A stretch of DNA of 64,000 nt. Source: Deltaproteobacteria bacterium. Lineage in GTDB: Bacteria; Myxococcota_A; UBA796; UBA2385. Under the pieces are notes generated by a model, which was not told the origin of the DNA, made no database searches, and saw only the letters and a program-made list of their open reading frames with translations. Positions within the stretch are counted from its first letter, which is position 1. Each line of letters begins with the position of its first letter. The stretch is taken from the NCBI GenBank assembly GCA_018401435.1, contig JAGYJW010000023.1:25327-89326 (forward strand), read 5' to 3'. Below are positions 47,888-49,664 of this stretch, piece after piece. Made by a program: the position numbers and the translations under genes.

Positions 47888-48382
47888 CTATTCCTTCAGG
47901 CGCAGGGACTCCACCGCCGAAATGCAAGGGGCGGTCAGGCTGGCCACGGGGATCTCGGGCTCGGGCATGGTGGCGTGCAGCAGGCCGACCACCTCGACCG
48001 CCTTGCCGTCCAGGCGGGCGCGCTCCTCGGCCGGACGCAGGGCCACCGCCGACCAGGAGGGCTCCAGGTAGATTCGGCGGCCATCGGCGAGGACCAGGGC
48101 CACATGGCCATCAAGCTGCGGCGGCCGGGTGTCCCGGGGAGAGCGCTGCCTCACGTCTACCTGGGTGTAGGTGCCGTGCACCGTCACCTTCTGGCCGTCC
48201 AAGGCAGGGATCTCGTCGGCGATGAAGACGGTGGGCATGGCCATTCCGGGGGCAGCAGGGGGAGCGGGAGCGACCGCGGCCGCCGAAGGAGGCACCGAGG
48301 GGGCCGCGGCCGGGCTGCGGCCCTGACAAGCCAGGAGCAAGGTGCAGAAGAGCAGCGCGGCGCGGTGCTCAGTTCCTGGCAC
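47888..48382 (-). CDS. Small lipoprotein, candidate immunity/partner protein of the DUF4157 gene
   Basis: A GTG at 48382 gives 'MPGTEHRAALLFCTLLLACQG' (lipobox). The start overlaps the stop of the upstream DUF4157 gene by 14 nt. Confidence 0.6.
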   Translation of the reverse strand: MPGTEHRAALLFCTLLLACQGRSPAAAPSVPPSAAAVAPAPPAAPGMAMPTVFIADEIPALDGQKVTVHGTYTQVDVRQRSPRDTRPPQLDGHVALVLADGRRIYLEPSWSAVALRPAEERARLDGKAVEVVGLLHATMPEPEIPVASLTAPCISAVESLRLKE

Positions 48383-49664
48383 TCTTGACCGCCATGGTGG
48401 TGGGCGTTTCGCCGTGCTGGTTGGTGGCGGTGTGCTGGTCGTGGAAGGTCTGGCCCTCGCGGTGGGCCGGGCCATACATGTCGAAGGTCCAGTCGGCGTT
48501 GGACACATCGGGCTTGGAGACCGAGAAGTTCTCGAGGCTGACGAAGTCACCGCCGGACTTCATCACCAGGCCGGCGAAGTGGAAGTTCCAGGTGTTGTCT
48601 TCGTAGCCCTTGATCGGGGCGCCACCGCTATTCATGGTGAAGCCCTCGCCGACTTCGGGGTTGGCGAAGTCGTTGATGCCGGCCTTCTCGTCAAAGGCGC
48701 GCTTGCCGGCGTCGTCCATGGCGTCGTAGTTGTGCTGCCCGCCCGCGAGGTCGTCAAAGAGCTCGCGCTTGAAGTCGCCGGGCCGGTGACCGGCCCGGGT
48801 CTCTTTGCGGGGGCCACCATTCTTGTCGTTGTAGGTGGCCTTCATGGTGCCCCACTGCTCGCCGTCGCCGCCCATGACGTCGCGGGTGGAGCGACCGCAG
48901 TCGGCGTAGTGGGTCATGCTGTCGCCGCCCGTCTTGGTGCGGGAGTTGACCGGCACGACCTCGACCAGCGCGACAGAGCCCGTGCCATCGGGCTTCTTGA
49001 TCACTTCCGTGTCGCTGCCCTCGTTCAGGGAGATCACCGAGCCATTGGCCTTGAGCTTGGCCTCGGCCCCCTGGATGAGGGAGGGTTCGGCCCAGAAGTG
49101 GTGGTTGGGGTAGCCCTCGCGAACGGCCATCTTGCCGTCTTCGCTCACCCGCAGGGTGTTGCGGCCCTTGCGCTGCACGGCGTAGCGCTGCACCGGCGCA
49201 TTCGCGACGTCCTTGGCGGCTTCTCCTCCGCCACCCACCTTGACGGACTGGCCCATGGCGGCCTTGCGGCCCAGGCTGTCGGCCTCGGCCTCCAGCGCGG
49301 GGTCGTTGTTCATGCCGCCGCGGCCGGCACGGCCGGAGCGCTGCTGCAGAATGTGGGTCAGCTCGTGGCCCAGCAAGAAGCGGAAGCGGGGGCTGTTCTC
49401 GTCCACCAGGCCGGGCTGGAAGACGATCTCGTTGCCCTGGGCGAAGGACAAGGCGCCGTGGGCCTGGGCCTCGGGGCCCGTGCGCACGCGGATATTGGAG
49501 AAGTCCGCGCCAAAGGCGGCCTCCATGTCGCCGGGCACGGAGGTCACCGAGGCCTTCAGGGCCTCCTGGCGGGCGGCGTTGCCGGGGCCTGCGGCCTGGG
49601 GGCCTGCGGCTTCGGGGCCGGCGGCGGCGGCCTGCGGGGCCTGTGCGGTGCGCTGCTTCTTCAT
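48369..49664 (-). CDS. DUF4157 (zincin HExxH) domain protein with an uncharacterised ~270-aa C-terminal domain; polymorphic-toxin-like
   Basis: The sequence 'MEAAFGADFSNIRVRTGPEAQAHGALSFAQGNEIVFQPG...LLGHELTHILQQR...NNDPALEAEADSLG' matches the DUF4157 pattern. There is no signal peptide. G+C is visibly lower than in neighbouring genes. The ATG is at 49664. Confidence 0.8.
   Translation of the reverse strand: MKKQRTAQAPQAAAAGPEAAGPQAAGPGNAARQEALKASVTSVPGDMEAAFGADFSNIRVRTGPEAQAHGALSFAQGNEIVFQPGLVDENSPRFRFLLGHELTHILQQRSGRAGRGGMNNDPALEAEADSLGRKAAMGQSVKVGGGGEAAKDVANAPVQRYAVQRKGRNTLRVSEDGKMAVREGYPNHHFWAEPSLIQGAEAKLKANGSVISLNEGSDTEVIKKPDGTGSVALVEVVPVNSRTKTGGDSMTHYADCGRSTRDVMGGDGEQWGTMKATYNDKNGGPRKETRAGHRPGDFKRELFDDLAGGQHNYDAMDDAGKRAFDEKAGINDFANPEVGEGFTMNSGGAPIKGYEDNTWNFHFAGLVMKSGGDFVSLENFSVSKPDVSNADWTFDMYGPAHREGQTFHDQHTATNQHGETPTTMAVKSARN

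Follow-up and report, generated by a model that had tools for sequence, protein, structure and literature searches.

DUF4157, a core marker of extracellular contractile injection systems (eCISs), often stands N-terminal to toxin domains (PMC8213781), and about half of the predicted eCIS toxins carry it, most of them with no other annotated domain (PMC11297309). Many of the eCIS toxins that have been tested come without immunity genes, which is a puzzle (PMC8213781, PMC11297309). Two such DUF4157 proteins, Cgo1 and Cgo2, fill the tube lumen of AlgoCIS (PMC8894135); in that system it is the disordered N-terminal region that is needed for loading, DUF4157 itself being dispensable (bioRxiv 10.64898/2026.05.27.728243). 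Here we analyzed a stretch of 64,000 nucleotides, referred to below as the window, from a Deltaproteobacteria bacterium (assembly GCA_018401435.1, contig JAGYJW010000023.1, positions 25,327 to 89,326), in which a DUF4157 gene at 48369-49664 is followed by a small partner gene at 47888-48382. We consider it probable that these two genes form an orphan toxin-immunity module, and that the toxin is a cargo of the eCIS-type contractile injection system encoded by the same genome. The locus is made up of the following features.

48369-49664, minus strand: toxin gene, an intact open reading frame (ORF) of 431 codons encoding a 431-aa protein
49539-49664, minus strand: N-terminal leader, residues 1-42 of the toxin, Ala/Gln/Pro/Gly-rich, a candidate eCIS loading sequence
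49269-49538, minus strand: DUF4157 / eCIS_core zincin-like module, residues 43-132, with the PF13699 match, HELTH and NNDPALEAEADSLG
49200-49268, minus strand: Gly/Ala-rich linker, residues 133-155, of variable length and poorly conserved in alignment A1
48372-49199, minus strand: candidate C-terminal toxin domain, residues 156-431 (276 aa), an uncatalogued family
48369-48382, minus strand: overlap of toxin and partner genes, 14 nt, in which the partner GTG overlaps the last four toxin codons
47888-48382, minus strand: partner gene with a GTG start, encoding a candidate immunity protein of 164 aa

The window toxin resembles the DUF4157-bearing eCIS-associated toxins (EATs; Geller et al. 2021; Danov et al. 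2024) in its putatively disordered leader, HExxH module and variable C-terminal domain, in residing in an eCIS-positive genome, and in having homologs at the 3' end of eCIS operons. It differs from typical EATs in being an orphan, located far from the operon, and from many of those tested in having a strictly coupled downstream partner. With EAT14, which combines DUF4157 with a transglutaminase-like Cys-His-Asp domain, it shares a probable Cys-His enzyme as its toxic part; unlike that of EAT14, however, the C-terminal domain of the window toxin (C-domain) matches no Pfam family, transglutaminase and papain-like models included. The three-part plan of a disordered N-terminal domain, DUF4157 and a variable C-terminal domain is also that of Cgo1 and Cgo2. 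Since N-terminal domain-dependent loading and a location in the lumen were demonstrated for these two proteins, we adopted their delivery model for the window toxin. By description Cgo1 and Cgo2 are nevertheless set apart from it: their C-terminal domains were reported to be different, that of Cgo1 being a predicted metalloprotease, and no immunity gene was described. The locus also has the hallmarks of polymorphic toxin systems (Zhang et al. 2012; PMC4436062), namely a modular trafficking head, a swappable C-terminal domain and an immediately downstream gene as the immunity candidate.

The toxin gene extends from an ATG at 49662-49664 to a TGA at 48369-48371. A GGGG lies 7-10 nt upstream of this ATG and the closest homologs of the toxin share the N-terminus MKQRR..., so that the ATG at 49664 is likely the start of the gene. 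The leader contains 14 Ala, 5 Gln, 4 Pro and 4 Gly among its 42 residues, a composition that fits the leader type of eCIS toxins, and the segment MKQRR...GNAA is common to toxin homologs. Because a hydrophobic core is absent from these 42 residues, the protein has no Sec signal, in agreement with a preliminary description of the locus, made from the sequence alone, in which an Ala/Pro/Gln-rich leader without a signal peptide had been noted. The same description had assigned the following region to the HExxH proteins of DUF4157, and residues 43-111 do match PF13699 (eCIS_core, formerly DUF4157) with an E value of 9e-18 and 64.7 bits, against a Pfam cut-off of 22. The zincin motif HELTH occupies residues 100-104 (49353-49367) and is followed by NNDPALEAEADSLG at 49269-49310. 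The positions given earlier for these two motifs, and for the Cys and His considered below, were all exact.

The preliminary description could fit the C-terminal ~270 aa to no family, and our searches led to the same result. Residues 156-431 had no match in Pfam or NCBIfam, gave nothing beyond noise in PHROGs and PADLOC, and matched no PDB sequence, either as a single protein in phmmer or as family profiles. A match to a housekeeping enzyme family, which the preliminary description had named as a contrary outcome, was thus not obtained. A PADLOC capP match to the toxin (E 3e-4) was discarded, as it spans the HExxH region alone.

When residues 156-431 were used as the query of a HMMER search of 1.84 billion cluster representatives, 754 matches were obtained at E<=1e-3, 362 at E<=1e-10 and 72 at E<=1e-30, each count referring to clusters at 50% identity. 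In nearly all 754 clusters, the protein ends with the C-domain. A Pfam scan of 102 diverse representatives found PF13699 in 59, with no other recurrent family and none that covers the C-domain; the remaining members have a divergent HExxH head or an LQRxxGN-type leader only, or are short proteins. DUF4157 heads like that of the toxin are also found fused to other C-termini, such as acetyltransferase, zeta-toxin-like and OmpA domains. As judged from these architectures, such swapping of heads and C-domains is the modular pattern of polymorphic toxins. In contrast to polymorphic toxin systems, the C-domain was seen on no Rhs, PAAR, VgrG, CDI or LXG scaffold among the 102 representatives, and it therefore looks confined to eCIS-type heads.

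The genomes that encode the C-domain belong to the Alpha-, Beta- and Gammaproteobacteria, Myxococcota, Bacteroidota, Cyanobacteria, Actinobacteria, Chloroflexi, Gemmatimonadota, Nitrospirota and Verrucomicrobiota, and one is that of an archaeon, Ca. Methanoperedens nitroreducens. All of the homologs are labelled 'hypothetical protein' in the database sources, and we found no description of the C-domain or of its OB-fold partner in the literature. The toxin domain and the partner are new families within a known kind of system. Several C-domain copies are present in two large (11.3-11.4 Mb) Bacteroidota-like genomes, a Microscillaceae metagenome-assembled genome (contigs C610, C674, C130 and C639) and 'marine bacterium AO1-C' (C37:404-407 kb and C20). 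These copies include adjacent tandem ones on a single contig, which suggests a local expansion or diversification of the toxin. In a Roseobacter sp. contig (L080:10001-11059), one in-frame stop falls inside the C-domain match, which may represent a pseudogene or an assembly error.

Three independent alignments agree that Asp255-Cys256 (ADCG), His362 (WNFHWAG) and one Gly are invariant in the C-domain, and Leu-Glu378-Asn379, Trp392, a Tyr-Gly pair and the motif GQTFHxQH...QHG are at least 90% conserved. The candidate catalytic residues are Asp255-Cys256 (48897-48902), His362 (48579-48581) and Glu378-Asn379 (48528-48533). The Cys of YADCGRS (48897-48899) and the His of WNFHFAG (48579-48581) had been proposed in the preliminary description as a catalytic pair of a protease, deamidase or transglutaminase. 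Both residues proved to be invariant across the 102 diverse representatives, but the chemistry stays conjectural, as there is no significant sequence or fold match to any of these enzymes.

The AlphaFold2 model of the C-domain, built from a 25-sequence alignment, has a pLDDT of 92.2 and a pTM of 0.90. In domain numbering, Cys101 opens a helix (101-109), His207 lies in a strand (206-215) and Glu223 ends a strand (218-223); in the full-length protein, this means that His362 starts a strand and that Glu378 ends the next one, 16 residues on. A Cys at the N-terminus of a helix, with a His on a strand and an acidic residue or Asn on an adjacent strand at a spacing of 16 residues, is a layout typical of thiol hydrolases, and the H-x16-E-N spacing recalls that of CHAP enzymes. 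The secondary structure of the model, three-dimensional distances aside, shows this arrangement. On the strength of the model, the C-domain is most likely a thiol enzyme, laid out like the amidases, peptidases or deamidases of the papain-like and CHAP/NlpC-P60 types. That peptidoglycan would be its substrate is only a guess.

The preliminary description had also suggested an immunity gene at 47888-48382, and this ORF turned out to be a partner conserved across phyla. Of the 80 related loci, about 63 have a co-oriented homolog of the partner immediately 3' of the C-domain gene; E values reach 4e-32, and the alignments cover the globular part of the protein. The pairing spans more than ten phyla, including Ca. 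Methanoperedens, and the arrangement recurs in two further metagenomic relatives. In homologous loci the partner start often overlaps or abuts the toxin stop, and the 14-nt overlap in the window suggests translational coupling of the two genes.

The N-terminus of the window partner, VPGTEHRAALLFCTLLLAC followed by QG, has a charged n-region, a hydrophobic h-region and a lipobox Cys (LLLAC; signal at residues 1-19, 48326-48382, with Cys19 at 48326-48328). The protein is thus a predicted lipoprotein, and the signal is also seen in its close relatives. After the signal come an Ala/Pro linker and a 118-aa domain (residues 47-164, 47891-48244), the AlphaFold2 model of which (pLDDT 95.5) is an OB fold, with a Foldseek probability of 1.0 to the OB domains of CST, RPA, AsnRS/AspRS and MCM. 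DUF5818 was weakly matched by 23 of 48 partner members (best E 1.2e-6), and the window partner reached 18.2 bits with this Pfam model, below its cut-off of 27. Immunity proteins are typically recognized as small, fast-evolving partners tied strictly to a toxin domain, and it is from this pattern that we infer a protective function.

A lipoprotein or secretion signal is present in the partners of 12/15 Myxococcota, 12/18 Bacteroidota and 3/4 Cyanobacteria. Of 21 signal-bearing partners, 11 have a Met at the start of the OB domain, where 4.6 would be expected (p about 0.002); in the window this is Met47 (48242-48244). Such an internal Met start hints at a second, cytoplasmic isoform of the partner. 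Partners that lack a signal begin at about the position of this Met, and gene callers alternate between long and short forms of the partner (L116 vs L117; L114).

No injection-system genes are present in the window region examined, as had been stated before. A search of the whole genome for eCIS and type VI secretion system (T6SS) loci, which the preliminary description had proposed, found a complete eCIS operon on a different contig, C172, at about 179-203 kb (L005:9118-19505, L006:4074-12830); with the sheath protein TssC as the marker, no T6SS was found in the genome. The operon consists, in order, of genes for a WHD-AAA ATPase (on the divergent strand), Pvc16_N (DUF4255), a sheath, a gp19 tube, a shorter second sheath, CIS_tube-LysM, a GPD hub, gp25, Baseplate_J (a protein of 1165 aa) and Tail_P2_I. 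At its end lies a YukD-like ubiquitin-fold gene (L006:11913-12830; PF08817, E 6e-7). Every one of the 22 genomes in the window's family carries Pvc16_N, which shows the operon to be a property of the lineage rather than an artefact of binning.

To relate the toxin to such operons across phyla, we turned to the 50 genomes that encode the C-domain, and in 49 of them Pvc16_N scored above the Pfam cut-off. In a Bacteroidota family with a Pvc16_N base rate of 5.5% (11/201), both C-domain carriers were positive (Fisher p=0.003). Gene position is the stronger evidence. Twelve of the 50 genomes, among them Bacteroidota, Betaproteobacteria, Gemmatimonadota, Nitrospirota and the archaeon, have the toxin gene on the contig and strand of Pvc16_N, 5-28 kb downstream of it. 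Two more have it on the opposite strand, within 21-32 kb of Pvc16_N, and in one it adjoins tube and spike genes, so that in total the toxin is found at the 3' flank of a contractile injection system (CIS) operon in 15 of the 50 carriers. Cultivable environmental carriers with this 3' position include Foetidibacter luteolus, Kordia aestuariivivens and a soil Chryseobacterium. A phmmer screen of the +/-10 kb flanks with the eCIS proteins of the window's own genome had picked up structural genes in no more than 4 of the 54 long loci. This is an undercount, because the flanks did not reach far enough and the queries were too divergent, and it was corrected by the Pvc16_N-to-toxin coordinate mapping; the AAA matches of that screen were indistinguishable from generic AAA ATPases. 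Given the co-occurrence with Pvc16_N and the position at operon flanks, the C-domain family fits the genomic definition of eCIS-associated toxins, with the window copy as an orphan member. The locus had been put forward as an orphan polymorphic-toxin or injected-effector candidate, and this proposal is now supported by the occurrence of the C-domain behind DUF4157 and other heads, by the conserved partner, by the tie to CISs at the level of both genome and operon, and by the eCIS of the genome itself.

The operon on C172 contains no DUF4157 gene; the genome has three such genes, none of them on this contig. The second DUF4157 protein is encoded on contig C127 around 40774 (L003:1519-3066, plus strand) and, by eye, has peptidoglycan-binding-like repeats and C-terminal motifs of an M15/VanY-type peptidase (H...D...AHFEH). 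This suggests that the eCIS cargo set of the genome includes a cell-wall-directed effector. The third is encoded on contig C90 around 102386 (L001:1-2280, minus strand) and comprises more than 760 aa in an open frame of 925 aa; it has a long disordered leader with LLQGGLGNQ and a large Gly/Thr/beta-rich C-terminal region, and ends at the locus edge.

The preliminary description had taken low G+C as a hint that the gene was acquired horizontally, and base composition was compared along the window. The G+C content is 68.4% for the toxin gene, 65.9% for the C-domain, 70.7% for the window and 75.1% for hutF, which places the toxin gene at the 15th percentile of same-sized windows. The dip is thus real but small. 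However, the G+C content at third codon positions (GC3) is 91.4% in the toxin gene and 86-95% in its neighbours, the dip being confined to codon positions 1 and 2. Because GC3 is like that of the neighbours, the dip reflects the amino-acid content of an Asn/Lys/Asp/Phe-rich protein and not foreign codon usage, and we reject it as a sign of recent horizontal transfer.

The C-domain is carried by 9/182 genomes of the window's class and by 3/22 genomes of its family, these being the window's own genome, a congener (76% identity) and a member of another genus (63%). This patchy distribution shows that the toxin-partner pair is accessory. The pair sits between hutF and xseA, on the same strand, a position kept in relatives at 59-76% identity, and both the congener and a metagenomic contig (59% identity) show the gene order hutG-hutF-toxin-partner-xseA. 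A look for empty sites at the xseA junction of the family genomes, with flanks of only 1.5 kb, met a lack of conserved synteny.

According to the reading that we favor, the toxin would be synthesized without a Sec signal and, by analogy with AlgoCIS, its putatively disordered leader would direct it into the eCIS tube, aided by the AAA+ ATPase of the operon. The DUF4157 zincin-like module would be the usual accessory head of eCIS cargo, and the C-terminal 276-aa domain would be the toxic part, acting as a thiol enzyme via Cys256, His362 and Glu378/Asn379. The translationally coupled OB-fold lipoprotein would bind and neutralize the toxin. In this organism, sister cells would be protected chiefly in their periplasm, and the target of the toxin would then be bacteria. 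Such a pair would resemble the Tae/Tai pairs of T6SSs, in which an effector of a contractile machine lacks a Sec signal and the downstream immunity protein is exported, and the putative Cys-His site on a helix-plus-sheet core, as modelled, would be reminiscent of Tae proteins, which are NlpC/P60- or CHAP-like amidases. The C-domain differs from Tae, CHAP and NlpC/P60 enzymes, however, in that it shows no sequence similarity or significant fold similarity to them, and the window pair differs from Tae/Tai in that its immunity candidate has an OB fold and is unexported in several lineages, and in that its delivery machine is of the eCIS type and not a T6SS.

A number of observations weigh against this reading. 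The toxin gene is on contig C121 and the eCIS operon on C172, so the two are not near each other and delivery is what we infer; EATs are recognized by a position no more than some ten genes from the operon, as a rule at its 3' end, and the window copy lies outside this range. When the leaders of the three DUF4157 proteins of the genome were compared with one another, no similarity was found (z about 0). In the window's class, Pvc16_N is present in 9/9 carriers and in 133/173 non-carriers (p=0.10), and with a base rate of 78% the co-occurrence within the class is uninformative. One alternative is that the pair is unrelated to injection systems and consists of a chromosomal enzyme and its lipoprotein regulator with a housekeeping or envelope role, the DUF4157 head being an ordinary metallopeptidase. 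The stable position between hutF and xseA and the host-like GC3 would agree with this, and DUF4157 genes do occur outside eCISs, for instance beside ripC in mycobacteria (PMC12067865). We nevertheless regard this explanation as very improbable, since the pair is missing from most genomes of the family and class, since nearly all carriers encode a CIS and 15 of the 50 have the toxin at the operon 3' flank, across phyla and in the archaeon, and since the partner is exported but the enzyme itself bears no signal for export. The localization of the partner is not uniform either, as no signal is found in 6/6 Actinobacteria, 2/2 Chloroflexi, 7/7 Betaproteobacteria and the archaeon. This, together with the enrichment of Met at the OB-domain start, which could yield a cytoplasmic form everywhere, would suit an eCIS-linked pair in which the OB-fold protein is an accessory factor, such as a chaperone, loading adaptor or activator, and in which the C-domain might hit eukaryotic targets, so that no antidote is needed. 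Immunity genes are indeed missing for many validated eCIS toxins, and a chaperone function has been suggested for genes next to DUF4157 (PMC8213781, PMC11297309). We think that such a role for the partner is unlikely: a protein exported away from a cytoplasmic cargo, as the lipoprotein signals of the window partner and of most partners in Myxococcota, Bacteroidota and Cyanobacteria imply, is hard to reconcile with a chaperone, and a downstream partner coupled strictly one to one, with sequences that co-vary, is classically the mark of immunity.

The remaining points concern the chemistry of the C-domain. The structure search that the preliminary description had called for was run with Foldseek and assigned no family: there was nothing significant among 350,542 PDB chains (best E 0.5) or in BFVD (best E 0.04). 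In hhalign, the family profile gave a probability of 0.2% against the E. coli Gss amidase, a CHAP enzyme, and papain-like Pfam models (CHAP PF05257, NlpC/P60 PF00877 and relatives) matched neither the toxin nor any of the 102 representatives at E<=1. In addition, of the His residues in the GQTFHxQH...QHG motif, His411 is invariant in alignment A4 and His417 is at least 90% conserved, which would fit a metal site as well. Alternatively, the pair could be a toxin and its immunity protein with a C-domain that is not papain-like but a new fold, binding metal via Cys/His/His/Glu, using another chemistry or being non-catalytic. That a confident model (pLDDT 92) finds no significant counterpart, that there is no profile similarity to CHAP, that two further His are conserved, and that the N-terminal beta-rich subdomain (C-domain residues 1-95) has no counterpart in CHAP enzymes all speak for this alternative, which we consider a genuine but minor possibility. 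The position of the Cys at a helix N-terminus, with the His and the acidic residue or Asn on adjacent strands 16 residues apart, a spacing typical of thiol hydrolases, argues for the papain-like layout instead. So do the weak matches, which in both structure libraries point to papain-like enzymes and not to metalloenzymes. The PDB list contains Gsp amidase, PlyC, Calypso/UCH and tegument-like deubiquitinases (E 0.5-4), and in the BFVD list there are a papain C1A protein of a phage (E 0.04) and several CHAP endolysins (E 0.2-1.4). The papain-like enzymes listed are unrelated to one another; taken as no more than a hint, both lists lean towards papain-like and CHAP enzymes.

A bolder version of the toxin-immunity reading, which we hold to be rather unlikely, is that the C-domain founds a large, CIS-restricted toxin family with a fold that lacks a solved counterpart, and that its antidote exists in two forms, one an exported lipoprotein and the other a cytoplasmic protein made from the internal Met. 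If this were true, eCIS particles would deliver this cargo into the periplasm of rival bacteria, and the pair would be the first widespread, genetically tractable toxin-immunity handle on whether and where eCISs attack bacteria.

Elsewhere in the window, the ORF at 53878-57132 (plus strand, 1084 aa) appears by eye to contain an N-terminal LysR-type helix-turn-helix, a RimK-like ATP-grasp domain and then a carboxylate-amine-ligase-like region. This would be an unusual fusion, if the reading of the domains holds.

The probable toxin would be a real but rather ordinary weapon as bacteria go, although its kind still lacks a name, and it would not astonish a specialist. What the analysis adds is that one unannotated end of an eCIS toxin is now a discrete and very widespread family with conserved candidate catalytic residues. 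This family has a dedicated OB-fold partner, often an exported lipoprotein, and a near-obligate tie to CIS-encoding genomes, from Bacteroidota to an archaeon. For annotation, the results support a new family model for the toxin domain and another for its partner, and together the two would give a name to thousands of 'hypothetical' proteins. If the partner is an antidote, many eCISs would be used against bacteria, and the toxin, the antidote and their point mutants would provide a simple genetic system to determine which compartment eCIS cargo reaches.

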